From: a virus
Taxonomy: Duplodnaviria > Heunggongvirae > Uroviricota > Caudoviricetes
IMG/VR virus record: IMGVR_UViG_2537562091_000005
DNA: 14,915 bases
Strand: one strand, 5' to 3'
Below are positions 2,446-14,915 of the stretch, in pieces (the stretch's first letter is position 1; each line of letters starts with the position of its first letter). The translations under genes were made by a program, and so were the position numbers. The notes beneath the pieces were generated by a model, which worked only from the letters and a program-made list of their open reading frames with translations, did not search any database and was not told the origin of the DNA.

Positions 2446-2563
2446 AAAAACGGATCAAAAAGCGTTATCTGCATCATCGTCTGCCTGTCATGGGCTGTTA
2501 ATCATTACCGTGATAACGCCACCGCCTACAAAGAGCAGCGCGACAAAAATGCCAGAGAACTGA
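2060..2563 (+). CDS. Phage protein, YdaW-like N-terminal fragment; last ~30 codons are out-of-frame Rz sequence (pseudogene-like fusion)
   Basis: ATG at 2060 with SD AAGGTGA 6 nt upstream. The N-terminal ~130 aa ([46 protein letters not shown]...) look like a real phage protein, possibly DNA-binding or replication-associated. From about 2461 the ORF reads through the Rz N-terminal region in another frame (ending ...[19 protein letters not shown]), which indicates a deletion fusion. Family assignment is uncertain. Confidence 0.5.
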
Positions 2564-2895
2564 AGCTGGCGAACGCGGCAATTACTGACATGCAGATGCG
2601 TCAGCGTGATGTTGCTGCGCTCGATGCAAAATACACGAAGGAGTTAGCTGATGCGAAAGCTGAAAATGATGCTCTGCGTGATGATGTTGCCGCTGGTCGT
2701 CGTCGGTTGCACATCAAAGCAGTCTGTCAGTCAGTGCGTGAAGCCACCACCGCCTCCGGCGTGGATAATGCAGCCTCCCCCCGACTGGCAGACACCGCTG
2801 AACGGGATTATTTCACCCTCCGGGAACGACTGGTAATGATGCAGGCCCAACTTGAAGGTGCTCAGCAATACATAACCGAACAGTGTTTAAAGTAA
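2464..2895 (+). pseudogene. rzpR: Rz-like inner-membrane spanin gene, 5'-truncated (start and first ~12 codons lost)
   Basis: The frame open from 2431 translates to ...[102 protein letters not shown]..., which I recognise as lambda Rz from its TM segment onward. There is no start codon upstream of the TM segment; the first ATG (2590) gives a 101-aa product lacking the membrane anchor. Confidence 0.8.
2651..2836 (+). CDS. rzoR: Rz1-like outer-membrane lipoprotein spanin (o-spanin), 61 aa, nested in the +1 frame of Rz
   Basis: [24 protein letters not shown]... has a signal peptide with lipobox LVVVGC and a proline-rich mature part ([15 protein letters not shown]), typical of Rz1. SD AAGGAG lies 7 nt upstream of the ATG. 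The embedded arrangement inside Rz is the classical spanin architecture. Confidence 0.85.
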
Positions 2896-2981
2896 AATCT
2901 TAACTACAATATGATTCATTTTGATGATTGTTTCATAAGGAACAGTGAAGTAAGATCTAAGAGGAGTTAAATTTTATACAG

Positions 2982-3015
2982 TATAATCATAATATTGCAG
3001 CAAGGTGGTTATAAT
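2982..3015 (+). promoter_or_regulatory. Putative promoter -10 elements upstream of trkG (TATAAT at 2982..2987 and 3010..3015)
   Basis: AT-rich intergenic region with two perfect TATAAT hexamers; no good -35 match. Pattern-based only. Confidence 0.2.
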
Positions 3016-3032
3016 TGAAAGAATATTTAGAT

Positions 3033-4490
3033 ATGAATACATCTCATGTAAGAGTTGTTACTCATATGTGTGGGTTCCTGGTTTGGCTCTATAGTCTTTC
3101 AATGTTGCCACCAATGGTTGTAGCATTGTTTTATAAAGAAAAAAGCCTGTTCGTTTTCTTTATAACTTTCGTTATATTTTTTTGTATTGGTGGCGGAGCG
3201 TGGTATACAACTAAGAAATCTGGCATTCAATTACGTACCCGTGATGGGTTTATTATAATTGTAATGTTTTGGATTTTGTTTTCTGTTATTAGTGCATTCC
3301 CTTTATGGATTGACTCAGAACTTAATTTAACGTTCATTGATGCTCTGTTTGAAGGGGTTTCTGGAATAACAACAACAGGAGCAACTGTAATTGATGATGT
3401 TAGTTCATTACCTCGGGCATATTTGTACTATCGGTCACAGTTAAATTTTATAGGTGGTTTAGGAGTTATTGTTCTGGCGGTTGCTGTATTGCCATTATTG
3501 GGTATTGGTGGTGCAAAGCTTTATCAGTCAGAAATGCCGGGGCCATTTAAGGATGACAAACTCACTCCCCGCCTGGCCGATACGTCACGGACACTGTGGA
3601 TAACTTATTCTTTATTAGGTATTGCTTGTATTGTCTGTTATAGACTTGCAGGAATGCCTTTGTTTGATGCTATTTGTCACGGGATTTCCACAGTTTCGCT
3701 TGGTGGTTTCTCAACTCATAGCGAGAGTATCGGATATTTTAATAACTATTTGGTTGAGCTGGTGGCTGGTTCTTTTTCCCTGCTATCGGCTTTCAACTTC
3801 ACTCTTTGGTATATTGTTATTAGCAGGAAAACGATAAAACCTTTAATCAGAGATATTGAACTTCGTTTCTTTCTGTTAATAGCCTTAGGGGTGATCATTG
3901 TTACCTCTTTCCAGGTCTGGCATATAGGTATGTATGACTTGCATGGAAGTTTTATTCATTCGTTTTTTCTTGCCAGCTCCATGCTCACTGATAATGGTTT
4001 AGCTACGCAGGATTATGCAAGCTGGCCCACGCACACGATAGTGTTTTTGCTGTTGTCAAGTTTCTTTGGGGGATGTATAGGTTCAACTTGTGGTGGAATT
4101 AAGTCACTTCGATTTCTTATACTTTTCAAACAAAGCAAACACGAGATAAATCAGCTTTCTCATCCCAGAGCGTTGTTGAGTGTAAATGTAGGAGGGAAGA
4201 TAGTTACAGATCGTGTAATGAGGTCTGTATGGAGTTTCTTTTTTCTTTATACTCTCTTCACGGTGTTTTTTATACTGGTGTTAAATGGTATGGGATATGA
4301 TTTTCTTACATCATTTGCAACAGTGGCTGCATGTATTAATAATATGGGATTAGGTTTTGGGGCTACTGCATCGTCATTCGGAGTGCTTAATGACATTGCA
4401 AAATATTTAATGTGCATAGCTATGATTCTTGGTCGCCTTGAAATTTATCCTGTTATTATATTGTTTTCAGGTTTTTTTTGGCGCTCCTAA
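3033..4490 (+). CDS. trkG: Trk-system potassium uptake membrane protein TrkG (prophage-encoded moron), 485 aa
   Basis: Polytopic membrane protein (MNTSHVRVVTHMCGFLVWLYSLSMLPPMVVALFYKEK...) with repeated glycine-rich selectivity-filter-like motifs typical of TrkH/TrkG; recognised as Rac TrkG. Markedly AT-rich relative to neighbours. Start ambiguity: ATG 3033 has no SD, whereas in-frame TTG 3015 is preceded by AAGGTGG at a 6-nt spacing. Confidence 0.9.
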   Translation: MNTSHVRVVTHMCGFLVWLYSLSMLPPMVVALFYKEKSLFVFFITFVIFFCIGGGAWYTTKKSGIQLRTRDGFIIIVMFWILFSVISAFPLWIDSELNLTFIDALFEGVSGITTTGATVIDDVSSLPRAYLYYRSQLNFIGGLGVIVLAVAVLPLLGIGGAKLYQSEMPGPFKDDKLTPRLADTSRTLWITYSLLGIACIVCYRLAGMPLFDAICHGISTVSLGGFSTHSESIGYFNNYLVELVAGSFSLLSAFNFTLWYIVISRKTIKPLIRDIELRFFLLIALGVIIVTSFQVWHIGMYDLHGSFIHSFFLASSMLTDNGLATQDYASWPTHTIVFLLLSSFFGGCIGSTCGGIKSLRFLILFKQSKHEINQLSHPRALLSVNVGGKIVTDRVMRSVWSFFFLYTLFTVFFILVLNGMGYDFLTSFATVAACINNMGLGFGATASSFGVLNDIAKYLMCIAMILGRLEIYPVIILFSGFFWRS

Positions 4491-4576
4491 TATATGGCTG
4501 ATTTATAATTGTGAGTTTAATATTATGTTGACTCACTCATTGATCCAATACCTAACTTTACCAGCAACACCTCCGC

Positions 4577-4610
4577 CCCCAGTAGCACTGGCTGCTGGGG
4601 TGCGTTTTAT
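4577..4610 (+). terminator. Possible intrinsic terminator downstream of trkG
   Basis: CCCCAG (4577..4582) pairs with CTGGGG (4595..4600) around a 12-nt loop, followed by TGCGTTTTATT. The long loop makes it a weak candidate. Confidence 0.3.
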
Positions 4611-4627
4611 TCATAAAGCAAGGATGT

Positions 4628-5419
4628 ATGAGCGAGAAATTAAAGATAGTCTATCGCCCATTACAAGAATTGTCACCGTATGCGCACAACGCCAGGACGC
4701 ACAGCCCTGAGCAGGTGGCACAACTGGTAGAAAGTATTAAGCAATTCGGCTGGACTAATCCGGTGCTGATTGACGAAAAGGGCGAAATTATTGCGGGTCA
4801 CGGTCGTGTTATGGCGGCTGAAATGCTCAAAATGGATTCTGTTCCGGTCATTGTTCTGTCTGGCCTGACGGATGAGCAGAAAAAGGCGTACCGCCTGGCA
4901 GATAATCGCCTGCCGATGAATGCTGGCTGGGATGAAGATCTGTTGCGGATGGAGCTGTCGGACCTAATCAATGCTGATTTTGATGTCTCCCTGACAGGCT
5001 TCATCCCGACAGAAATTGATGAACTGTTGACGGATGTTTTGCCCGGTACAGGAAATGAGGAGGAGCCGTATACGACGAAAATTGATACGCCTGTTTATGA
5101 GCCGTCGGGCGGTAAACCGGATATCAGTGAACTGTACGACGATACGAAAACGCAGGAGCTGATCAGCCGGATACGTTCGGCTTCCCTTGAGCCTGATATT
5201 GAGAAATTCCTCCTGTGTGCGGCAGAACGTCACACGGTGTTTAATTTCAGCAGAATTGCGGACTATTACGCTCACGCCCCCGCTGAAATTCAGTGTTTTT
5301 TCGAGGAGTCGGCGCTGGTGATCATTGATTATCAGCAGGCTATTGAAAATGGATTTGTCCGGATGACGCAGCGCATGGTGGAGATCATGCATGGTGGTGA
5401 GGAGGAGGAATATGCGTGA
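4628..5419 (+). CDS. ParB-like nuclease N-terminal domain protein (ParB/Srx superfamily), 263 aa
   Basis: N-terminal region IVYRPLQELSPYAHNARTHSPEQVAQLVESIKQFGWTNPVLIDEKGEIIAGHGRVMAA fits the ParB N-terminal fold (conserved NAR..S and GHGR motifs), followed by an acidic C-terminal extension. AGGA lies 3 nt upstream of the ATG. No methyltransferase motifs are visible. Confidence 0.7.
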   Translation: MSEKLKIVYRPLQELSPYAHNARTHSPEQVAQLVESIKQFGWTNPVLIDEKGEIIAGHGRVMAAEMLKMDSVPVIVLSGLTDEQKKAYRLADNRLPMNAGWDEDLLRMELSDLINADFDVSLTGFIPTEIDELLTDVLPGTGNEEEPYTTKIDTPVYEPSGGKPDISELYDDTKTQELISRIRSASLEPDIEKFLLCAAERHTVFNFSRIADYYAHAPAEIQCFFEESALVIIDYQQAIENGFVRMTQRMVEIMHGGEEEEYA

Positions 5420-5498
5420 TGATTTTTGCGCCTTTATTCTGACTCACGGGCGACCGGACAAAGTTCTGACTTACCGAACGTTGCGTCGTGCTGGCTAG
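5412..5498 (+). pseudogene. 28-codon gene stub (MRDDFCAFILTHGRPDKVLTYRTLRRAG) with strong SD, likely remnant 5' end of a deleted or frameshifted gene
   Basis: ATG at 5412 is preceded by GGAGGAGGAA and overlaps the ParB-like stop (5417..5419), a coupled arrangement. It stops after 28 codons at TAG 5496..5498. The long capsid ORF is in a different frame. Confidence 0.3.
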
Positions 5499-6544
5499 CA
5501 AAAAACGCAAAAGCTGACGCCGCAGCAAAAGATCAGACGGTAACCGCGCCAGTTGCGCCTGAGGCGAAAACCGAAGATATCGTACCGGGGCCGTCAGCTC
5601 CGAATACCGGTGATCAAAATATTGGCACTGTTGATGTGAAAATTACTAAATCCAAAATGGCACCGGTTAAATGGAATGGTGAAGAACAACTGGCTCTTGG
5701 CCCTTCAGGGACTTACAACACCATTCTGGCTGATCAGTTTAAGCAGGCTTTTCGCGCCCTTGCAAACGAGGTTGAGGCTGATCTTGGTGCGTTGTATTTC
5801 GGTGCTTCCCGCGCCGTGGGAACCGCAGGGACAACGCCGTTTGGTGTTAAAGATGATCTTTCTGATGCTGCTCTGGCTCGTCAGGTTCTGGAGGATAACG
5901 GCGCACCGACAACCGATCTGCAGATGGTGCTTGGCTCCAGTGCCATTGCTAATTTGCGCGGAAAACAGTCTGTACTGTTTAAAGTGAATGAATCCGGCAC
6001 TGAACAGCTACTGCGTGAGGGCGTGTTGGGGCGTCTGGAGGGATTCAATATTCACAGTTCGGCAGGTGTAAAACGAGCGCCAAAGGTTGCTGCAACTGGT
6101 TATCTCGTGAATGGCGAGAAAAAAGAAGGCGATGTTCTTATTTCCATTGATACTGGTTCGGGGAGTATTTCTGCAGGTCAGATTGTTACGTTCGCTGGCG
6201 ATCCGAATCAGTATGTTGTGGCAGCAGCGACCAGCAATCTGATTACTCTTGCAGCGCCCGGACTGCGTCAGGATCTGGCCGATGATACTGCAATCACAGT
6301 TGTTGGCTCCTTTACTGCAAATATGGCGTTTGATCGCAACGCGTTTCTGCTGGCATCCCGTACTCCGGCAATGCCGGAAGGTGGCGATAATGCTGATGAT
6401 GTAATGAATGTTACGGACCCGATTTCAGGGATTACGTTCCAGATTGCACTGTATCGTCAGTATCGCCAGGTGCGCTATGAAGTTGGACTGGCATGGGGTG
6501 TTTCATCAGTGAAGCCGGCACATGGTTGTCTGATTCTTGGTTAA
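5426..6544 (+). CDS. Phage major capsid protein, P22-coat-like family; 5' end appears damaged (no ATG or SD in frame until codon 78)
   Basis: 372-codon frame with segments resembling P22 coat protein from memory (FRALANEVEADLG vs P22 ARKLANNVELKVA; GQIVTFAGD insertion-domain-like region; C-terminal GLAWGVSS). The frame opens at 5423 after a TGA; the only early starts are TTG 5426 (17 nt from the SD) and unsupported GTG 5636 and ATG 5657. Probably a pseudogene or frameshifted gene. Confidence 0.5.
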   Translation: MRLYSDSRATGQSSDLPNVASCWLAKNAKADAAAKDQTVTAPVAPEAKTEDIVPGPSAPNTGDQNIGTVDVKITKSKMAPVKWNGEEQLALGPSGTYNTILADQFKQAFRALANEVEADLGALYFGASRAVGTAGTTPFGVKDDLSDAALARQVLEDNGAPTTDLQMVLGSSAIANLRGKQSVLFKVNESGTEQLLREGVLGRLEGFNIHSSAGVKRAPKVAATGYLVNGEKKEGDVLISIDTGSGSISAGQIVTFAGDPNQYVVAAATSNLITLAAPGLRQDLADDTAITVVGSFTANMAFDRNAFLLASRTPAMPEGGDNADDVMNVTDPISGITFQIALYRQYRQVRYEVGLAWGVSSVKPAHGCLILG

Positions 6545-6554
6545 ACATTCAAAC

Positions 6555-6576
6555 GGGGCTTCGGCCCCATTTTTAA
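6555..6576 (+). terminator. Intrinsic terminator immediately downstream of the capsid gene
   Basis: GGGGC (6555..6559), TTCG tetraloop, GCCCC (6564..6568), then ATTTTTAA, beginning 11 nt after the capsid stop. Confidence 0.6.
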
Positions 6577-6586
6577 TGGAGGGCAT

Positions 6587-6763
6587 ATGGCCGGATTAAC
6601 TAAAGAGCAAAGAGCACAGCGTGAAGCCGCACAAAAAACGCAAATTGAGTTAGTGGTTATGGTGACCGATTATCAGATGTTTCCCGGCGCACCAACTATC
6701 GCTAATGTTCATCCTGATGAAGTTGACAACTGGAAGGCTATGGGCTGGAAAACTCAGGAGTAA
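6587..6763 (+). CDS. Small hypothetical phage protein, 58 aa (not in ORF track)
   Basis: ATG 6587 preceded by GGAGG (4-nt spacer); translation MAGLTKEQRAQREAAQKTQIELVVMVTDYQMFPGAPTIANVHPDEVDNWKAMGWKTQE; stop TAA 6761..6763, 3 nt before the next gene start. It fills the capsid-connector gap with gene-like spacing. Confidence 0.45.
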   Translation: MAGLTKEQRAQREAAQKTQIELVVMVTDYQMFPGAPTIANVHPDEVDNWKAMGWKTQE

Positions 6764-6766
6764 CAC

Positions 6767-7162
6767 ATGATCACTTACGTGACCTGTGATGACGTTGATA
6801 ATGCGTTTGGGAACGCCTGGACGAGTGAGAACGCTAAAAATAAAGCTGTTTTAATGGCTAATGCCTGGCTTAATGGCTTCAACCTGAAAATTAACCCATC
6901 CCGTATTCCGGAAGAGGTAAAACTTGCGGGAGCATATGCAGCCAGAATTGCCTCATTCGGTAAGTTGTTTCAGCAGAAAAATGATTCTGGCGTTGTTATC
7001 AGTAAAGCCGTGTCGGCTGACGGGGTCAGTGTATCGAAATCATTTGCTGAGTTGCCATCAAACAGCACTGTATTGCTTGAACCCGATTTACAGCTTGCGA
7101 TAGCACTGCTGAAACCGTACGGACTTAGTCGCTCACAAGTCAGGGTTGTGAGGGGGGGATAA
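6767..7162 (+). CDS. Putative head-tail connector / head completion protein (gp6-like), 131 aa
   Basis: Compact ORF following the capsid gene; assignment rests on position in the head-completion cassette and size, with no confident motif. Confidence 0.45.
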   Translation: MITYVTCDDVDNAFGNAWTSENAKNKAVLMANAWLNGFNLKINPSRIPEEVKLAGAYAARIASFGKLFQQKNDSGVVISKAVSADGVSVSKSFAELPSNSTVLLEPDLQLAIALLKPYGLSRSQVRVVRGG

Positions 7163-7545
7163 TGGGGCTTCGTGAAGAGATTCAGTCAGAGGTTGCCGCT
7201 GCTTTTGATGAGGATTTAGCGGACGCCGTGAGTGATTTTTCTGGTTCTTACGTTACGCACCGGCACTGGGATCCTGTGACGGAAACTGGCGGCGAATCCA
7301 CCGCAATCTATACCGGGCGAGGCGTGTTGACACGTTATAAGCTGGGCAGAATTGATGGGATTAATATTTTGCATGGTGACCTTAAATTAACCGCTCTGGT
7401 ATGCGAGGTTACGGATAAACCAGCTGTCGACCATATTATTGAGATTTATGATCCTGTATCAAGGCAGTTACAACGATACGAGGTAATTACAGCAAGTGTA
7501 GATCCTTCCGCATCAGTTTACTCTATCCAGTTAAGGAGAGCGTAA
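7162..7545 (+). CDS. Putative head-tail joining / head closure protein, 127 aa
   Basis: Start overlaps the upstream stop (TAATG) with a G-rich SD (AGGGGGGGA). Function assigned from position and size only. Confidence 0.45.
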   Translation: MGLREEIQSEVAAAFDEDLADAVSDFSGSYVTHRHWDPVTETGGESTAIYTGRGVLTRYKLGRIDGINILHGDLKLTALVCEVTDKPAVDHIIEIYDPVSRQLQRYEVITASVDPSASVYSIQLRRA

Positions 7546-7926
7546 ATGGCAAAGGCATGGGATATAGAACCGTCAATATTTGCCGGGATGATTGAGGAAG
7601 ATGTAGGGCTGAAGATTCGCTACATCGCTATTCAGATTCTTACTGCTATTGATATTGCTGCTCCGGTTGATACCGGACGTTTCAGAAATAACAACCTGGT
7701 GTCGTTACAGCATCCCGATTTTGGTATATCTGATAACGTGGATCCGAACGGTACGATTGCTGTTCAGCGTGGGATCGGGGTTATTTCGAAAGCTGCAAAT
7801 TACGGAGTTATTTATATCCAGAATAACCTTCCTTATGCAGAGACTCTTGAAAACGGTCATTCACAACAAGCGCCAACTGGCGTGTATGCCAACGCTTTTC
7901 ATGGTGTTTTACAGGCTTACAAATGA
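7546..7926 (+). CDS. HK97 gp10-like neck / tail-completion protein, 126 aa
   Basis: Contains PVDTGRFRNN and LPYAETLENG, resembling the gp10-family signature (DTG..R ... YA..vE.G) from memory. Starts immediately after the upstream stop. Confidence 0.6.
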   Translation: MAKAWDIEPSIFAGMIEEDVGLKIRYIAIQILTAIDIAAPVDTGRFRNNNLVSLQHPDFGISDNVDPNGTIAVQRGIGVISKAANYGVIYIQNNLPYAETLENGHSQQAPTGVYANAFHGVLQAYK

Positions 7927-8360
7927 CGTTTACTGAAATCAGAAATACGGTTATTTCCAGAATGACGGCACAGACGATTATTGATGGAAAAGACGTATTG
8001 TATCCGAACGCGCCAACGTTCGATCCTTCCGGTAAGTTAATCTGGGCGCGGTTAAGTAATATTCCCGGGCAGGCTGGAGTTAATGAAATTGGCGCGGGGC
8101 CGATTGTTTATCGCACGGGGATAATCATTATTCAGTTATTTGTCCCCGCAGGTTCTGGTTCAAAACTCATTACTGAGACAGCCGATAAATTGCGGGAACT
8201 GTTTGAGTTTCAGGATGACGATCGTCTCAGTTACCAGGCTGTTTCCTCAACCAGCCAGACTACTGCGGACAGAATAACAGCACATAATTTACGCATAATT
8301 ACCTCTCGCTTTTCTGCAATAAAAAAGGCGCCATTTCTGGCGCCCGTATCTGGGTTATAA
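7923..8360 (+). CDS. Putative tail terminator / neck protein, 145 aa; 3' end runs through an opposite-strand terminator (possibly chimeric C-terminus)
   Basis: ATGA overlap with the upstream gene. The last ~15 codons (…SAIKKAPFLAPVSGL) are encoded by the hairpin that serves as terminator of the convergent J fragment, so the C-terminus may derive from a rearrangement joint. Confidence 0.45.
   Translation: MTFTEIRNTVISRMTAQTIIDGKDVLYPNAPTFDPSGKLIWARLSNIPGQAGVNEIGAGPIVYRTGIIIIQLFVPAGSGSKLITETADKLRELFEFQDDDRLSYQAVSSTSQTTADRITAHNLRIITSRFSAIKKAPFLAPVSGL
8320..8344 (-). terminator. Intrinsic terminator for the minus-strand J fragment
   Basis: On the minus strand: GGCGCCA, GAAA loop, TGGCGCC, then TTTTTTATT, beginning about 20 nt past the J stop (stem at plus 8327..8333 and 8338..8344; A-run 8321..8326). 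Confidence 0.6.
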
Positions 8361-8363
8361 AAT

Positions 8364-10925
8364 TCAGCTAATCGTGATGCCTGCAGTGGCTTTCTTCATC
8401 ACAACAACCAGCAAATCGCTGATACTTGCTGTGGGATACCAACCATTTACCCACCATGCTGATACAGAAAACTCCAGTGTCATTACGCCACTGCCTGCTG
8501 GCATATCAATAACACCCGTGTAAATCAGAGTATTATCCAGAGCCGTTCGGTTATAAATTTCAGCCCCGTTTTTCTTCACTATCAGGCGGCATGACGAATA
8601 AGTATCGCTATTCTCCCGCTCATGTCTGGCACCGCTGAAAGCCACCGCTGGAATAACAATTTGCCGGTCAAACGGCTGATCGTCATAAACCCTGACGGTA
8701 ATGGTCCCTGATGGCCACCGCTCCGGTGCACGGGAGTCCCGGGGGAAAGCTTTGCCCACTGTTTTAACGAGATCGCCTTCAATCTGGTTCGCGGACAGTT
8801 TTCCCAGAACCCGACAGTTCTCGTTAATCGTGACGTTGTTGAGCGTCCCGGAGTTCGCATTCACGCTACCGCTGATATCGGCATTTTTCGCCGTCAGCCG
8901 CCCGTCCGGTGTCAGGGAAAATGCCGGAGGATTACCGCCGCTGGTAATGGTCGGAGCCGTCAGGCGTTTCAGGAACACGTCGTTCATGAATATCTGATCG
9001 CCCTGACCAACAAACATTGGTCTTGTGTTGCCATTAGACGGATCAATAAACGCGATACGGTTAGCGGCAACCAGGAACTGGCTCAGTTTGCCTTCCTCCG
9101 TATCCTCCATGCTGAGGCCAAGCCCCGCGACATAATGCCTGCCGTCTTCGGTCTGCTCAATTTTGACGCCCCACATGGCATTCCATTTATCGTTGGCGTC
9201 TTTCCACTCTTTCGAAAACTCCTCCAGTTTGCTGGCGTTATCCTCCGTCAGCTCGACTTTTTCCAGCAGCTCATTGCCGAGATGGGATTCGGTTATCTGG
9301 CCTTTGAAAAAATCCAGGTAACCTTCCGCATCATCGCTCGCCCGACCAACAGCCTCCACGAATGCCGATTTGCCGACGGTGTTCACACTGCGGATATAAA
9401 AGTAATAATCACGGCCCGGTTTGATATTGGTACTGGCGGCTATCCAGTACAGCGCCGTGCCAAGATAGCGGGCTGTGGTTTCAACCTGTCTGATATCAGC
9501 AACCCGCTTTTCCGAGAACCAGAACTCAAACTGTACCGTCGGATCATAAACGGCAAGATACGGCGTGGCGGTTATCTGAAAATAGCCCGGCGTCAGCTCA
9601 ATCCGCGACGGTGCTGCCGGTGCGGCAATCCGGAACGATACCGATGCCGGATCGCCCTGCTGTCCCCACGCATTTGCCGCCCGGACTGTCAGCCTGTAGT
9701 TCCCCAGCGCCAGCTGCCTGAAGCGGTATGTGTTTTCCGTCGTCCTGGCCGTGCTGACCAGCCGCTCACTGCCGTCGTCCGCTGCCACGGTCAGGCGAAG
9801 CATAAAGCTCACCCCCTTCACCACCTTCGGCGTGTCCCAGCGCGCCAGCACCTGATATTCCCCGCTGTCTGCGGTGACTTCGGCAGTCAGGTGCTGCACT
9901 GCTGGCGGCGTGACACCATTCACCGTGCCGCTCTGGTCGCCGTCAAAGTGCGCCCCGTTATCCACGATGGCTTCTTTTTCCGGTACATGCTGCACGGCGG
10001 TGATGGCATACGTGCCGTCGTCGTTCTCACGGATACTCACGCAGCGGAACAGGCGCTGGCGCAGCGTCGGCAGCTTCAGCCCCCACACGCTGTATCCGGC
10101 AACGCCGTCAGGAACACGACTCACTTTTACCTTCACGCCGTCGGTGACGGACTGGACCTCCACGCTGACCGGATTGCCACTTCCGTCAACCAGGCTTATC
10201 AGCGTGGTACCGGAGGATGGCAGCGTGATTTCACGGTCGAGCGTCAGCGTCCGGGTCTGGCTGTTCACCGCCAGCACGCGCCCGCCGATGCTGATACCCG
10301 CATAGTCATCATCGCAGATTTCAATGACATCCCCCGGTACATGGCGAAGCCCTTCTGCGCCCACGCTGAAGTCCACGGTCTGCGTTTCCAGCAGCTCCGT
10401 TTTAATCAGCCACAGCCCGGCGCGGTGTGCCTGCCCCCGACTGGTACAGCCAAAGGCATCCATCTTCGTGACGTTACGGCCGTAACGGGCAATGGCCTGC
10501 GTATCCTCCACGAGCTCTGTCGCCGTCTCCCAGCCGTTATCCGGGTCAATCCAGTTCACCTCAACGGCATTATGGCGGTCCTTCAGGGCGCTGAAGCTGT
10601 AGCGGAACGGCGCGCCATCATCCGGCATCACCACATTACTGCGGTTATAGGTCCACACCTTATCCGACGGTCGGTCCTGCACGAACGTCAGCGTCTGCCC
10701 GTTCCATACCGGCATACAGCGCATCGCCGAGCAGAAATCACTGAGCACATCCCACGCCTTGCGCTGTGTGGTCAGCCAGGCATTACAGGTAATGCGCGGC
10801 TCCGTGCCGCCAAAGCCGTCCGGCACTGACTGGTCGCAGTACTGGCCGATGACATACAGCGCCCATTTGTCCACATCCGCCGCACCAAGACGTTTCCCCA
10901 TGCCGTAGCGCGGGTGGGTCAGCAT
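8364..10925 (-). pseudogene. Lambda J-like host-specificity / tail-tip protein, N-terminally truncated and inverted relative to lom and stf
   Basis: From [50 protein letters not shown]... to the C-terminus the translation closely matches lambda gpJ as I recall it, including FN3-like repeats and the C-terminal receptor-binding region. About 280 N-terminal residues of a ~1130-aa J are absent. The ORF-track extension to 11030 (GTG start, 35 non-J codons) is antisense to lom and has no SD. Confidence 0.8.
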
Positions 10926-11171
10926 ATGGCTTACAGCCGAGTGTCGACCTTCTCCGGGGATTATCTCCGCGTAACTGACAACAAGGGGAAAACGCACGAT
11001 GTGCTGACCGGAAGTGATGACGGTCGCCACAGCAATACGTCTCTGGCGTGGGGGGCTGGCGTGCAGTTTAACCCGACCGAATCCGTGGCCATTGATATTG
11101 CTTATGAAGGCTCCGGCAGTGGTGACTGGCGCACTGACGGTTTCATCGTGGGTGTCGGTTATAAATTCTGA
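10926..11171 (+). pseudogene. lom (Ail/Lom family outer-membrane protein) 3' fragment, last ~81 codons only
   Basis: C-terminus ...[43 protein letters not shown] matches the Lom/Ail beta-barrel C-terminus with terminal Phe. The signal peptide and N-terminal two-thirds are missing. Confidence 0.8.
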
Positions 11172-11197
11172 TTAGCCAGGTAACACAGTGTTATGAC

Positions 11198-11226
11198 AGC
11201 CCGCCGGTTCAGGCGGGCTTTTTTGT
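11198..11226 (+). terminator. Intrinsic terminator downstream of the lom fragment
   Basis: AGCCCGCC (11198..11205), GGTTCA loop, GGCGGGCT (11212..11219), then TTTTTTG. Confidence 0.65.
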
Positions 11227-11235
11227 GGAGTGGAT

Positions 11236-13587
11236 ATGGCAGCAGTAAAAATCTCAGGTGTGCTGAAAGATGGTGCGGGAAAACCAATACAGAACTGCAC
11301 TATTCAACTGAAGGCAAAGCGTAACAGCACCACGGTACTGGTGAACACGGTGGCCTCTGAAAATCCGGATGAAGCCGGGCGTTACAGCATGGATGTTGAG
11401 TATGGCCAGTACAGTGTCATCCTGCTGGTTGAAGGTTTTCCGCCTTCACATGCCGGGACCATTACCGTCTATGAAGGTTCCAGACCAGGTACGCTGAATG
11501 ATTTTCTTGGTGCCATGACGGAGGATGATGCCCGTCCGGAGGCACTGCGCCGTTTTGAACTGATGGTGGAAGAAGCAGCACGCAACGCTGAAGCCGCCTC
11601 TCAGAGCGCAGCGGCGGCAAAGAAATCCGAAACTGCAGCGGCATCATCGAAGAACGCGGCGAAAACCTCAGAAACGAATGCAGCTAATAGTGCACAGGCG
11701 GCAGCGACCTCACAGACTGCATCAGCAAACTCCGCGACAGCAGCCAAAAAATCAGAAACCAACGCGAAAAACAGCGAGACAGCCGCAAAGACGAGCGAAA
11801 CCAACGCAAAGTCCAGCCAGACGGCAGCGAAAACCAGCGAAACGAATGCCAAAGCCAGTGAAACTGCGGCAAAAAACAGCCAGGTTGCGGCAGCCGGTTC
11901 TGCGACTTCAGCAGCTGGATCAGCAACTGCTGCGGCTAACAGCCAGAAAGCTGCGAAGACGAGTGAAACTAACGCAAAGTCCAGCCAGACGGCAGCGAAG
12001 ACCAGCGAAACGAATGCCAAAGCCAGCGAAACTGCGGCGAAAAACAGCCAGGATGCAGCAGCCCAAAGCGAGAGTGCCGCAGCTGGTTCTGCAAGTGCGG
12101 CGGCTTCTTCTGCCACTGCATCAGCCAACAGTCAAAAAGCAGCAAAAACCAGTGAAACCAACACAAAGGCGAGCGAGACTGCGGCGACTAACTCGGCGAA
12201 AGCATCCGCTGCAAGCCAGATGGCTGCAAAAGCAAGTGAAGACGCAGCCAGAGAGTATGCAAGCCAGGCAGCAGAGCCGTATAAATATGTCTTACAGCCA
12301 CTGCCTGATGTGTGGATACCGTTTAATGACTCGATGGATATGATTACAGGATTTGGCCCGGGATATAAAAAAATAACAGTGCGCGATGATGTGGTCACTA
12401 TACCATCCGACAAAATTGTCCCGTTTTCCCGCGCGAGTTCCGCGACCTATATCAATAAGTCCGGCGCTCTTACCATTGCAGAAATTAATGAGCCACGTTT
12501 TGAAAAAGAAGGGCTGTTAATTGAAGGGCAGAGAACAAATTACTTCACAAACTCAAACGCTCCGGAATTGTGGAATAAAAATCCAGGCCTGAAGATAAGC
12601 GAGACAAAAACCGATTCCAGGGGTTTTAAATATGCAACGTTTACCCCAGAAAAATATTTAGATAGTTCTGGCTCATATGGAATTATATCAGGGGCAGCAG
12701 CAAATAAGATAGCGGTAGTCAAAAATGATGCAGTTACAATATCCTTTAGAGCAAAAGGGGATAATGTAAGATTTGCGGCTAGATTTGATAAAGGGGATTC
12801 GCCAGTTGCTGTAGCTGCCATTTTTATTGATAGCGCCACACTAGATACATTCACGTCTGGAGCAGATGCGTCTAATATTGCTGTGAAAAATGTTGTTCGT
12901 GACGGTGAGTGGGTTGCTGTAGAGGCTGTTTATAAAGTAACAGACGACTCTACATATATTAACGGCGCCATTCTGATGTCAAACAAACTGGGTGCTAATT
13001 TTGATAAGACTAGTTTTATGGATGTAACCACCCCTCAAATAGAGCTAGGTTCTTGCTTATCATCATTTATTGTCACTCCAGGTGTTCCTGCGACAAGGGC
13101 GAGTGATATGGTTATTTTTTCAACCAGAAATAACATAAGTTCTGTCCCTTTAAGCTGTCTTGTTGAAATACATAAAAATTGGGACTCTACGCCAAATCAG
13201 GCCCCACGAATTTTAACCACTATTGGCGTGGCGACTAATGATGAACAACTGGTATTGGCTTTCAGGACGCCTACAAGTCCGGATGTAGAACCTTTACCTT
13301 ATGTTCAGTTTGGAGTGAGATCTGCATATCTTAGTCCATCTGTGAAGGCCGGGCGCAAAATGATTGCTGGTTTTGTCTGTAATAGCTCGACTGAATTTCG
13401 TTGCTGTTGTAATGGTTACCTGTCACCTGTTCAGACTTCGTCATGGAAGAATACCGGAGCTGCACATGAAATACGTATTGGGGGAACTTCTGCTGGAGGA
13501 GAACGTCACTTGTTTGGTCACGTTCGTAACCTGAGAATATGGCATAAAGAATTAACTGATGCGCAAATGGGGGAGAGTATTAAATGA
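11236..13587 (+). CDS. Side tail fibre protein, mosaic: lambda-Stf-like N-terminus, Ala/Ser/Thr tandem-repeat shaft, divergent C-terminal region with possible lectin-like (LamG/concanavalin-type) end
   Basis: ATG 11236 with GGAG 5 nt upstream (ORF track starts at in-frame GTG 11230). The N-terminal ~115 aa (MAAVKISGVLKDGAGKPIQNCTIQLKAKRNSTTVLVNTV...) match the lambda Stf N-terminus from memory. Residues ~120-330 are KTSETNAK-type repeats. The C-terminal ~450 aa are low-GC and end ...GERHLFGHVRNLRIWHKELTDAQMGESIK, reminiscent of LamG-like domain termini; no His-rich GxHxH motifs. Confidence 0.8.
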   Translation: MAAVKISGVLKDGAGKPIQNCTIQLKAKRNSTTVLVNTVASENPDEAGRYSMDVEYGQYSVILLVEGFPPSHAGTITVYEGSRPGTLNDFLGAMTEDDARPEALRRFELMVEEAARNAEAASQSAAAAKKSETAAASSKNAAKTSETNAANSAQAAATSQTASANSATAAKKSETNAKNSETAAKTSETNAKSSQTAAKTSETNAKASETAAKNSQVAAAGSATSAAGSATAAANSQKAAKTSETNAKSSQTAAKTSETNAKASETAAKNSQDAAAQSESAAAGSASAAASSATASANSQKAAKTSETNTKASETAATNSAKASAASQMAAKASEDAAREYASQAAEPYKYVLQPLPDVWIPFNDSMDMITGFGPGYKKITVRDDVVTIPSDKIVPFSRASSATYINKSGALTIAEINEPRFEKEGLLIEGQRTNYFTNSNAPELWNKNPGLKISETKTDSRGFKYATFTPEKYLDSSGSYGIISGAAANKIAVVKNDAVTISFRAKGDNVRFAARFDKGDSPVAVAAIFIDSATLDTFTSGADASNIAVKNVVRDGEWVAVEAVYKVTDDSTYINGAILMSNKLGANFDKTSFMDVTTPQIELGSCLSSFIVTPGVPATRASDMVIFSTRNNISSVPLSCLVEIHKNWDSTPNQAPRILTTIGVATNDEQLVLAFRTPTSPDVEPLPYVQFGVRSAYLSPSVKAGRKMIAGFVCNSSTEFRCCCNGYLSPVQTSSWKNTGAAHEIRIGGTSAGGERHLFGHVRNLRIWHKELTDAQMGESIK
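11590..12240 (+). repeat. In-frame tandem repeats inside stf (11-aa sub-repeats; about 100-nt near-identical copies at a 168-nt period)
   Basis: The peptide AAKTSETNAKSSQTAAKTSETNAKASETAAKNSQ occurs twice, 56 codons apart (about 11786..11885 and 11954..12053). The two copies differ by six synonymous transitions. A third partial copy follows (KAAKTSETNTKASETAA). Confidence 0.75.
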
Positions 13588-13865
13588 AAGATTTAACACT
13601 CAAATTTGCAGACAGGGCCGACTTTTCGGCCTTTATGGAGAGCATTGGCTATTATGATGACGAGTCGATGCAGGATGATATTCTTATTGACGTGATAGGT
13701 AACGTGTACAAAGAAACCGGAGAACTGACTGAAGATGGCGAACCGGTATGTGTTAAGGAAGACGGATATTTTGTAAACGTGCGCATCATTAATGATTCGC
13801 AAATATCGTCATTATTCGATGAATACGTGGTTGCTGTTGAGCATCAACTTCGTGGCTGGATGTGA
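13584..13865 (+). CDS. Small acidic hypothetical protein, 93 aa (possible fibre assembly/accessory factor by position)
   Basis: ATGA start-stop overlap with stf and SD GGGGGAGAG upstream. Acidic composition (MKDLTLKFADRADFSAFMESIGYYDDESMQDDILIDVIGNVYKETGELTEDGEPV...). No similarity to lambda Tfa that I can recognise. Confidence 0.55.
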   Translation: MKDLTLKFADRADFSAFMESIGYYDDESMQDDILIDVIGNVYKETGELTEDGEPVCVKEDGYFVNVRIINDSQISSLFDEYVVAVEHQLRGWM

Positions 13866-13874
13866 GGAAGAAAA

Positions 13875-14915
13875 ATGGCTACATCGACAGTAATTCCTGA
13901 TGACATCAAAACGCTAAAATCCGACGTTAGCAAATTAAAAAACGATCAAGGAAGCTACGCAACAAAATTATATGTAGACAGCAAAGATGAAATCGTTGGT
14001 GACTGGTCTGCTTCATGGTATCAGCAGGTATTGCCAACTAGCGGAGCTATATTTGGGAGAAAACTCCGCTCAACTCACAGGACGGCAGGTGTTGAGGATG
14101 CGTATTGCGAACTATACCTCAAAAAATGGATAGACAGTCCAGGTAACGCAATGGCGCGCCTTAACCTGAACGATAACGGGACAAACATTTGCTGGGACTT
14201 TACCAACCTTTATGGCGGTACGATGATTTTTCCCGGTGACAGCGGATACCTCAAAATGGGTAACTGCCTTATGTCATACAGCAAGCGTGGAAGTAACGCG
14301 CTTATTAAATTTGATTACACCGACACATTACAGATCAAATATGCCAATCATGGGTCAACCATGACATTAAACACACAGGGAACCGCTTATGCTGGTGTTA
14401 CTGCTCAATTGTGGGGCAACACCAGCCGTCCTGTTGTTTATGAAGTCGGTGTTGATGGTGGCGCTTATATGTTCTATGCGCAGAAAAATACCGATAACAC
14501 CTATATGTTAAGCGTTAATGGTGCATGTCATGCCACCGCATTTAACCAGCATTCCGACCGGGATCTGAAAGACAACATTCAGGTGATCGATAATGCAACC
14601 GACCGCATCCGTAAAATGAACGGCTATACATACACGCTTAAAGAAAACGGTATGCCCTATGCTGGTGTCATTGCACAGGAAGCTCTGGAAGCAATCCCAG
14701 AAGTTGTAGGTTCCGCAATGAAATATCAGGACGGTGCAAGCGGATCGGAAGGTGAAGAAGGTGAACGTTATTACACAGTAGATTATTCTGGTGTTACTGG
14801 CTTGCTTGTTCAGGTAGCCAGAGAGTCAGACGACAGAATAACAGCACTGGAAGAAGAAAACGCAGAATTAAGACAAAGATTATCTGCAATTGAGGCGGCG
14901 CTTGCGTCTAAATAA
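13875..14915 (+). CDS. Short tail fibre/tip protein with C-terminal S74-type intramolecular chaperone (autoproteolytic) domain, 346 aa
   Basis: C-terminal ~120 aa (HSDRDLKDNIQVIDNATDRIRKMNGYTYTLKENGMPYAGVIAQEALEAIPEVVGSA...VDYSGVTGLLVQVARESDDRITALEEENAELRQRLSAIEAAL) match the Peptidase_S74 chaperone signature (Ser-x4-Lys dyad, NI..I, GxIAQE, coiled-coil tail). Predicted self-cleavage at Ser227 (codon 14553..14555). SD GAGGAAG upstream of the ATG. Confidence 0.75.
   Translation: MATSTVIPDDIKTLKSDVSKLKNDQGSYATKLYVDSKDEIVGDWSASWYQQVLPTSGAIFGRKLRSTHRTAGVEDAYCELYLKKWIDSPGNAMARLNLNDNGTNICWDFTNLYGGTMIFPGDSGYLKMGNCLMSYSKRGSNALIKFDYTDTLQIKYANHGSTMTLNTQGTAYAGVTAQLWGNTSRPVVYEVGVDGGAYMFYAQKNTDNTYMLSVNGACHATAFNQHSDRDLKDNIQVIDNATDRIRKMNGYTYTLKENGMPYAGVIAQEALEAIPEVVGSAMKYQDGASGSEGEEGERYYTVDYSGVTGLLVQVARESDDRITALEEENAELRQRLSAIEAALASK

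Follow-up and report, generated by a model that had tools for sequence, protein, structure and literature searches.

The window examined here, by which we mean the whole 14,915-nt stretch of IMG/VR virus record IMGVR_UViG_2537562091_000005, is a decayed (dead) Rac-type prophage of Escherichia coli. We are confident that its tail region was rearranged by a conservative inversion in place and later by a deletion, and that the resulting 145-aa open reading frame is a chance chimera of a truncated tail-terminator gene with sequence from the J-lom region, read through a hairpin that belongs to the opposite strand, that of the tail tip gene J. An earlier note on this DNA had invoked an inversion alone; the comparisons below add the deletion as a second event.

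The window contains intR, an xis-like gene, trkG, ynaK, head-connector genes and tail-fibre genes and is adjoined by a ttcA-like gene, thereby combining the two hallmarks of a Rac-type prophage, an integrase end beside ttcA and a trkG and ynaK cargo. In locus L005 a PF01171 gene, which this domain-level match suggests is ttcA-like, lies beside the gene of a 411-aa integrase, together with TrkH and ParB_N genes, and ttcA is the integration site of Rac (PMC4632033). The trkG and ynaK annotations were found in L001 and L020. The same prophage is present intact and uninverted in E. coli F5505-C1, between sitD and trkG, with 99.5-100% identity to the window for every aligned segment (2464-14915). 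Compared with such a Rac-like parent, which had the normal, ancestral order tail terminator, tube, ydaY, tape measure, M, L, K, I, J, lom and stf, the rearrangements amount to a head deletion of 6,972 bp, a tail deletion of 8.8 kb and an inversion of 11,164 bp. The window resembles K-12 Rac and other rac-like prophages at ttcA in its intR-type integrase by a ttcA-like gene, its trkG and ynaK cargo, its lom/stf tail-fibre end and its heavy decay. It has decayed differently from K-12 Rac, however, since it keeps head-connector genes and carries the head deletion, the inversion and the tail deletion, whereas K-12 Rac presumably retains ydaY, tmpR and an IS5-split lomR.

The chimeric reading frame runs on the plus strand from an ATG at 7923 to a TAA at 8358-8360, its start being coupled to the upstream Neck1 gene through an ATGA overlap. 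Its native part, 7923..8250 (codons 1-109 plus 1 nt of the tail-terminator gene), is 100% identical to L001 and 99.9% identical to L020 up to position 8250. The remainder, 8251..8360 (36 codons plus TAA), is foreign and, as judged from the translations, consists of antisense read-through of lom codons 1-16, the lom ribosome-binding site and the J-lom terminator; the foreign part, which the earlier note had placed from about 8300, thus begins at 8251 and takes in the start of lom as well. That the frame reads through the hairpin proved correct to the base (8327-8344), residues 135-141 (KAPFLAP) being encoded by it before VSGL and the stop. The J fragment on the minus strand ends with TGA at 8366-8364, and the sequence confirms the claimed 3-nt gap between the two stops (8361-8363). 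The chance of at least 36 sense codons is about 0.18, the remaining two frames stop after 9 and 12 codons, and both the read-through and the spacing of the stops are unremarkable.

The gene had been labelled a neck protein, a name that applies to the preceding Neck1 / tail-completion gene (7546-7926), which lies directly upstream; the gene itself encodes a tail terminator. The window protein matches PF13554 (E 8.2e-08, 32.9 bits, cut-off 27) and the profile phrog_179 'tail terminator' (E 3.5e-34, residues 1-115), so that the N-terminal and central regions of the family are present. Residues 1-109 are those of a normal member of the siphovirus tail terminators (PHROG 179, PF13554; lambda gpU is a functional counterpart), phage copies being 87-89% identical over the tblastn-aligned residues 1-125, and as in that family the gene follows Ad1, Hc1 and Neck1 genes. 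The C-terminus is different. Native homologues have 130 aa and end in ...AVSS-IAVGEKNGWFQLNLQIPYRAL, whereas the window protein ends in ...AVSS-TSQTTADRITAHNLRIITSRFSAIKKAPFLAPVSGL, 36 unrelated residues having replaced the last 21 conserved ones, and it therefore lacks the conserved C-terminal segment of a full-length tail terminator. The DNA homology with the tail-terminator genes of E. coli PK8276 and F5505-C1 and of phages vB_EcoS-666R9 and SPF_0923 ends at 8250. In tblastn, residues 1 to about 109-125 matched terminator genes, and the only matches of residues 110-145 were in lambdoid phages, antisense to the start of lom and the J-lom spacer. On the phrog_179 profile the native protein covers positions 16-148 and the window protein 16-131, with a score 21 bits lower; Pfam, unlike the PHROG profile, does not discriminate between the two, both matching PF13554 only at residues 6-95. 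Searched against the sequences of solved structures, the native protein gave one chance-level match only (E 0.48). The suggested homologue alignment thus found no homologue with the hairpin-encoded C-terminus, and the homology breaks, tblastn, the PHROG profile and the reciprocal junction described below all bear out the proposal that an inversion supplied the J-flanking DNA from which the C-terminus is read, leaving the protein chimeric and truncated. The gene no longer lies between neck and tail-tube genes, the downstream tube gene, present in L003, L004 and L020, being gone from the window. Because the conserved last 21 residues are lost and the partner tail genes are gone, the 145-aa product is probably a pseudogene-like remnant without function and not a functional variant.

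Three homology blocks can be delineated: the head and terminator genes up to 8250, an inverted J-lom segment from 8248 to 10927, and the 3' part of lom with stf from 10925. At the first junction (A, 8248..8250), which is the crossover point of the inversion, the homology with the tail terminator ends at 8250 and the opposite-strand J-lom homology begins at 8248, so that the trinucleotide CAA is common to both parental sequences. At the second (B, 10925..10927), the inverted J is joined to the 3' part of lom across TAT, the microhomology of the secondary deletion. The minus-strand 5' fragment of lom (8248..8296, codons 1-16, MRKLCAVILSAVVWLV) continues into antisense terminator-gene sequence for 5 codons before a stop. 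It is followed by the native J-lom intergenic spacer (8297..8363, minus strand) and by the inverted C-terminal J fragment (8364..10927, minus strand), which comprises 853 of 1131 codons plus the stop, has no native start and is 99.5% identical to J of L002 and L020. Its Pfam matches include the Phage-tail_3, Ig, Tail_Tip and C-terminal RBD domains; the first 278 codons, and with them the N-terminal part of the full domain set of a tail tip protein J, are missing. The 888-aa J reading frame owes its N-terminal extension (10928..11030, minus strand, GTG start) to the antisense of the 3' fragment of lom and is spurious in this part; the J homology ends at 10927, and 853 aa is the length given by the gene callers in L007 and L008. 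The 3' fragment of lom (10925..11172, plus strand, about codons 119-199, ending GYKF*), has PF06316 recorded for it in L005 and L008; the 304 nt of lom that once linked it to the 5' fragment have been deleted. It is followed by the native terminator 3' of lom (11198..11219, plus strand), just before the stf-like side tail fibre gene (11236..13587, plus strand; PF08400). The latter has kept its original orientation and is 99.9% identical to L020, and the gene call of 783 aa in L005 puts its ATG at 11236.

The other product of the exchange survives in sister contig L006, to which L009 is identical. Junction A of L006 is the same as that of the window, and in its block 10062-10575 the 3' end of the terminator gene and the opening ~420 nt of the tail-tube gene lie in reverse complement, joined to lom from nt 47 onward at TTG (10573-10575; GGCTATTGCCGCTGGTATGCC), the exact reciprocal of CAA. 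This reciprocal junction, together with the uninverted arrangement of F5505-C1, leads to the conclusion that the inversion was conservative and took place in situ. Moreover, L006 and the window each retain sequence lost from the other, which points to separate deletions of one inverted ancestor. No inverted repeat longer than CAA was found at the two breakpoints.

We therefore propose the following history. First, a conservative, reciprocal inversion of 11,164 bp extended from the tail-terminator gene to lom, with breaks after nt 328 of the former and after nt 49 of the latter and with crossover at the CAA/TTG trinucleotide found at both sites. This set the start of lom, the J-lom spacer with its hairpin and the 3' end of J in reverse against the truncated terminator gene, whose frame by chance meets no stop for 36 codons as it crosses the start of lom in antisense and then the hairpin, and ends 3 nt before the J stop. 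Each lineage subsequently lost most of the tail module by its own deletion, that of the window lineage, of about 8.8 kb at the TAT microhomology, removing everything between J codon 278 and the reciprocal junction together with 304 nt of lom. Illegitimate recombination at microhomology would account for the breakage.

A single complex template switch of the MMBIR / FoSTeS type could in principle have produced both junctions and both deletions without an inversion intermediate. The 3-bp microhomologies at junctions A (CAA) and B (TAT) are typical of template switching, and no contig with the complete, undeleted inversion was recovered, the intermediate being reconstructed from two partly deleted descendants. 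We consider this very unlikely, however, because L006 and L009 share junction A and preserve the reciprocal junction exactly, without loss or gain of a base, together with a different internal deletion, a combination that demands an inversion intermediate and separate deletions thereafter. Contig L006 also speaks against the idea that the J-lom fragment came from another lambdoid prophage and was inserted or recombined into the Rac remnant. J-lom copies are indeed numerous in E. coli genomes (in the median genome at 2 places, at most at 13), and the J part is 99.5% identical to F5505-C1 as compared to 99.9% for the flanks. Yet the inverted block of L006 holds the very 3' end that the terminator gene has lost, with the adjoining start of the tail-tube gene and joins the rest of lom at the same CAA/TTG, as only an inversion in place predicts, which renders a foreign origin extremely improbable.

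The occurrence of the rearranged allele bears on the quality of the assemblies. The exact 145-aa protein recurs on 11 contigs, drawn from NCBI isolates, ENA metagenomes and Logan assemblies and counted as contigs and not as independent lineages. None of 5,426 complete E. coli genomes carries junction A, megablast searches with junctions A and B and with the reciprocal junction returned no complete E. coli genome spanning any of them, and an exact 34-mer across junction A had zero matches in GTDB representative genomes, IMG/VR and JGI metagenomes. A misjoining of contigs through repeated prophage tail sequence would be compatible with this absence from complete genomes, with a draft scaffold as the source and with the multi-copy nature of J and lom. 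Nevertheless, such an artefact is next to negligible as an explanation, given that the junction recurs in 11 contigs from various projects and sources, among them ones of 2.49 Mb, 183 kb and 173 kb in length, and lies at a 3-bp overlap outside any long repeat, the terminator-gene side not being high-copy. The allele is rare and represents an ordinary decay scar; a literature search for a Rac inversion of the present kind yielded nothing specific.

A programmed inversion through a site-specific invertase of the Pin/Gin/Hin type, acting perhaps at quasi-sites and with the two orientations as alternative functional states, would fit the perfectly conservative exchange, the AA of the shared CAA (the hix core) and the pinR gene that K-12 Rac, as we assume, carries beside its tail-fibre genes, but has hardly any chance of being correct, since the inversion destroys two genes and all carriers show one orientation plus further decay, no invertase gene was seen among the gene calls and Pfam matches of the window and the L005 flanks, and no inverted crossover sites of ~26 bp were found at both inversion ends, which have only 3 bp in common. 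Quasi-sites were rejected, the breakpoint regions agreeing with hix and gix at 10-15 of 26 positions, compared with shuffle maxima of 15-18. The invertible tail-fibre segments P1 Cin/C, Mu Gin/G and e14 Pin/P likewise involve conservative DNA inversion in a phage tail region; unlike these, the window has neither recombinase nor 26-bp crossover sites, and its 11-kb, gene-destroying inversion does not switch between functional fibre ends.

The conservative inversion in place also explains the position of the hairpin, which lies on the minus strand at 8316..8345 within the J-lom spacer, upstream of the lom ribosome-binding site GAGAGGT that the spacer also carries. The intrinsic-terminator-like element has its stem at 8345-8326 and a T-run at 8325-8316, the arms being GGCGCCA (8327-8333) and TGGCGCC (8338-8344) around a TTTC loop. 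In a terminator scan it was called solely on the minus strand (a stem of 8 pairs including 6 GC, a 4-nt loop and the tail TTTTTATTGC); on the plus strand the stem is followed by CGTATCTGGG, without a U-run. The scan pattern by itself is weak evidence for a terminator, because 7 terminator-like sites were called in 7000-12000 as compared to 5.0 +/- 2.2 in shuffles, and the folding z-scores are modest (-1.9 and -2.5). That the hairpin is real follows from its conservation: in 8 lambdoid sequences the J-lom interval holds the same stem-loop and U-run, and comparison of these 8 sequences brought out compensatory variants of the stem (GGCGCC/GGCGCC, GGCACC/GGTGCC and GGCGTC/GACGCC; in lambda a different stem at the same position). 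As the earlier note had suggested, 8300..8363 was compared with the region downstream of J in lambdoid phages and turned out to be the native J-lom spacer; a 151-nt query including it (8270-8420) shows 100% identity with phage PhiR47_1 and has matches in 205 phage records.

Stem, loop, U-run on the minus strand and compensatory changes are those of an intrinsic terminator, and judging from sequence and conservation the hairpin is in all probability the native J-downstream terminator of lambdoid phages. Since the U-run is present on the J strand only, it probably acts on that strand and is not a bidirectional terminator; of the claim that the convergent gene ends share it, the part concerning J therefore stands and that concerning the plus strand does not. 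Transcription of lom in lambda lysogens (PMC1151598) fits a terminator insulating lom from J, and a literature search for a described J-lom terminator yielded nothing specific. With the J-lom terminator of lambda and lambdoid phages, at the boundary of the lom 'moron', the window copy shares its place after the J stop and ahead of the lom ribosome-binding site and its architecture, in which a 4-nt loop closes a GC-rich stem of 6-10 bp and a U-run follows; it differs in being upside-down relative to the head genes, in that lom is cut after codon 16 and in being caught inside a foreign reading frame on the opposite strand.

The scar might conceivably have been co-opted, as antisense RNA or as a host-retained chimeric 145-aa protein with a new C-terminal tail, which we regard as most unlikely. 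The inversion would aim the lysogen-active lom promoter and ribosome-binding-site region antisense into the head-connector remnant, and with the J-lom hairpin within the 3' end of the chimeric frame a stable antisense RNA would be possible; were co-option true, the chimeric protein might disturb the way in which superinfecting Rac-like phages assemble their tails. For annotation, the 145-aa 'tail terminator' and 888-aa 'J' reading frames in public assemblies are rearrangement-junction artefacts that should be flagged as pseudogenes. The locus represents ordinary prophage decay and reveals no new biology or mechanism. It is a clean, base-exact case of how such decay proceeds stepwise, by a conservative inversion at a 3-bp identity and then by different microhomology deletions in sister lineages, with the parental arrangement and the reciprocal junction both still recoverable from public data.

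The window holds two convergent ORFs, one of 145 aa on the plus strand running from ATG at 7923 to TAA at 8358-8360 and one on the minus strand ending with TGA at 8366-8364. Direct reading of the sequence thus places their stops 3 nt apart (8361-8363), as an earlier note had remarked. The hairpin GGCGCCA-TTTC-TGGCGCC (8327-8344), which that note described as translated within the plus-strand ORF, was recovered at exactly the same coordinates and encodes residues 135-141 (KAPFLAP), with four more codons following. The 145-aa ORF matches PF13554 (Pfam) and PHROG 179 'tail terminator' and is preceded by three ORFs for the head-tail adaptor Ad1, head closure Hc1 and Neck1/tail completion. The minus-strand ORF carries the domains of the tail-tip protein J (Phage-tail_3, two Ig_J, Phage_Tail_Tip and Ig_GpJ_C), and further downstream on the plus strand are two fibre genes, one for a side tail fibre (stf, PF08400) and one with Peptidase_S74. 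Within the stf-like gene, a direct repeat of ~126-168 bp (11770-11895 and 11938-12063, 91% identical, 168 bp apart) resembles the repeat modules common in fibre genes.

The proposal that the plus-strand C-terminus derives from J-flanking DNA brought in by an inversion, making the protein chimeric, is borne out by homologue alignment. In tblastn, residues 1 to ~109-125 match terminator genes in phages of Escherichia, Klebsiella, Acinetobacter and Pseudomonas and the similarity ends there, while the sole matches of residues 110-145 are antisense to the starts of lom, the gene after J. The native tail terminator counts 130 aa and ends in ...LSYQAVSS-IAVGEKNGWFQLNLQIPYRAL; the window protein is the same up to AVSS and then reads ...LSYQAVSS-TSQTTADRITAHNLRIITSRFSAIKKAPFLAPVSGL, and its PHROG match reaches only to profile position 131, compared to 148 for the native protein. 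Nothing suggests selection on the 36-codon read-through, which has a chance probability of ~0.18; the two other frames across the foreign part stop after 9 and 12 codons. As the locus no longer has tube, tape-measure or tip genes, the 145-aa product is left without partners and has probably lost its function.

The same prophage is intact in E. coli O25:H16 F5505-C1, between sitD and trkG, in the order terminase, portal, capsid, connector genes, tail terminator (130 aa), tube, ydaY, tape measure, M, L, K, I, J, lom and stf. Counting F5505-C1 prophage positions in phage orientation, window 2464-5497 corresponds to 9517-12550 (100% identity), 5489-8250 to 19523-22282 (99.93%), 8248-10927, inverted, to 33446 down to 30767 (99.48%) and 10925-14915 to 33751-37741 (99.93%). 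Megablast of 7500-9000 splits cleanly into head/terminator DNA up to 8250 and, from 8248 on, opposite-strand 'gpJ | Ail/Lom' DNA; phage records show the same split, and no match among 5,426 complete E. coli genomes crosses this junction A. Both sides share CAA (8248-8250) at junction A and TAT (10925-10927) at junction B, where the inverted J meets the 3' part of lom, and breakage probably occurred by illegitimate recombination at microhomology.

Two identical sister contigs, L006 and L009, contain junction A together with its reciprocal: positions 10062-10575 of L006 carry, reverse-complemented, the 3' end of the terminator gene and ~420 nt from the start of the tail-tube gene, and a TTG links this block to lom from nt 47 on with no bases lost or gained. 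This exact junction is the decisive evidence that a conservative inversion of 11,164 bp took place in situ, and it contradicts template switching in one step, insertion of J-lom DNA of foreign origin and an assembly error, each of which is also at odds with the 11 contigs of different sources. A programmed invertase switch is contradicted by the absence of an invertase gene from the window and the L005 flank, by the only 3 bp of shared identity at the breakpoints and by chance-level similarity to hix and gix. The inverted stretch begins at nt 329 of the terminator gene and ends at nt 49 of lom, and its descendants then diverged by separate deletions: 8,484 + 304 bp spanning the reciprocal junction in the window type (L005, L007, L008 and L010), and 8,914 bp between a point in J and one in the tube gene in the L006 type. 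Each type retains sequence absent from the other. Common to both is a head deletion of 6,972 bp relative to intact F5505-C1 (9-bp overlap at 5489-5497), which is therefore probably older than the split of the two lineages. Gone with it are terminase, portal, minor head protein, scaffold and ~29 codons from the start of the P22-type capsid gene, which makes the 372-aa ORF at 5426-6544 a 5'-truncated capsid remnant.

An intrinsic terminator requires a U-run. The terminator scan calls the hairpin for the minus strand alone (8-pair stem 8345-8326, loop of 4 nt, tail TTTTTATTGC); on the plus strand an A-run precedes the stem and CGTATCTGGG, without a U-run, comes after, so the earlier view of a terminator shared by both genes does not hold. 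Because the scan barely exceeds shuffle expectation (7 sites compared to 5.0 +/- 2.2) and folding z-scores are modest, the case for a real element rests on conservation. The 151-nt region 8270-8420 contains the J-lom spacer and is 100% identical to phage PhiR47_1 and present in 205 phage records. In all 8 lambdoid sequences compared, the interval from the J stop to the lom RBS holds a stem-loop with U-run, with compensatory stem variants (GGCGCC/GGCGCC, GGCACC/GGTGCC, GGCGTC/GACGCC), whereas lambda has a different stem, CGTCCG/CGGGCG, at the equivalent position. The hairpin is thus a native J-lom spacer element and, judged from its sequence, would act as a one-way J-strand terminator caught in a read-through frame. 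That lom is transcribed in lysogens (PMC1151598) fits a terminator separating lom from the late operon.

The reciprocal products, from lom and from J, are as meaningless as the 145-aa protein. The gene lom is split over opposite strands into a 16-codon 5' piece (8248-8296, minus) and a ~81-codon 3' piece (10925-11172, plus), with 304 nt missing in between; the 5' piece still has its RBS and codes for the 21-aa peptide MRKLCAVILSAVVWLVEETAW*. If its promoter is still active, antisense transcription would enter the terminator and neck genes. In the '888-aa' J ORF (853 aa by other gene callers), J homology stops at 10927; the initial 34 codons, GTG start included, derive from the antisense strand of the lom 3' fragment (10928-11030, minus). 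An open frame of 564 aa lies on the strand opposite the J fragment (9135-10829, plus); with no start context and no annotation in any related record examined, it is most likely a shadow ORF of J. Through its different deletion, L006 (8442-10481, minus), like L009, carries an in-frame 679-aa fusion in which the first ~140 codons of the tail-tube gene (PF18906) precede the C-terminal Ig/tip/RBD part of J. In L001 (E. coli PK8276), another Rac-type remnant with its own decay, 3843-6131 holds an intact 130-aa terminator gene and then an annotated tail fibre gene whose 5' end resembles a tail-tube start, suggesting a tube-stf deletion fusion and another independent decay route at this locus.

Scaffold GL872249.1 (assembly GCA_000191015.1) matches the window at 100% identity, and in it a left-end 411-aa integrase adjoins a PF01171 (TtcA-type) gene; Rac integrates in ttcA (PMC4632033), and this arrangement, with trkG and ynaK also within the island, is a Rac hallmark. 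A 491-aa ORF (3015-4490), portal-like in size and position, was rejected as portal since PF02386 identifies a TrkG potassium transporter, which is Rac cargo and not a phage structural gene. Apart from the one-way hairpin, the earlier interpretation is supported and sharpened. The locus represents ordinary prophage decay in a rare allele; its value beyond annotation hygiene is low, and it serves as a neat case study of inversion with subsequent deletions.
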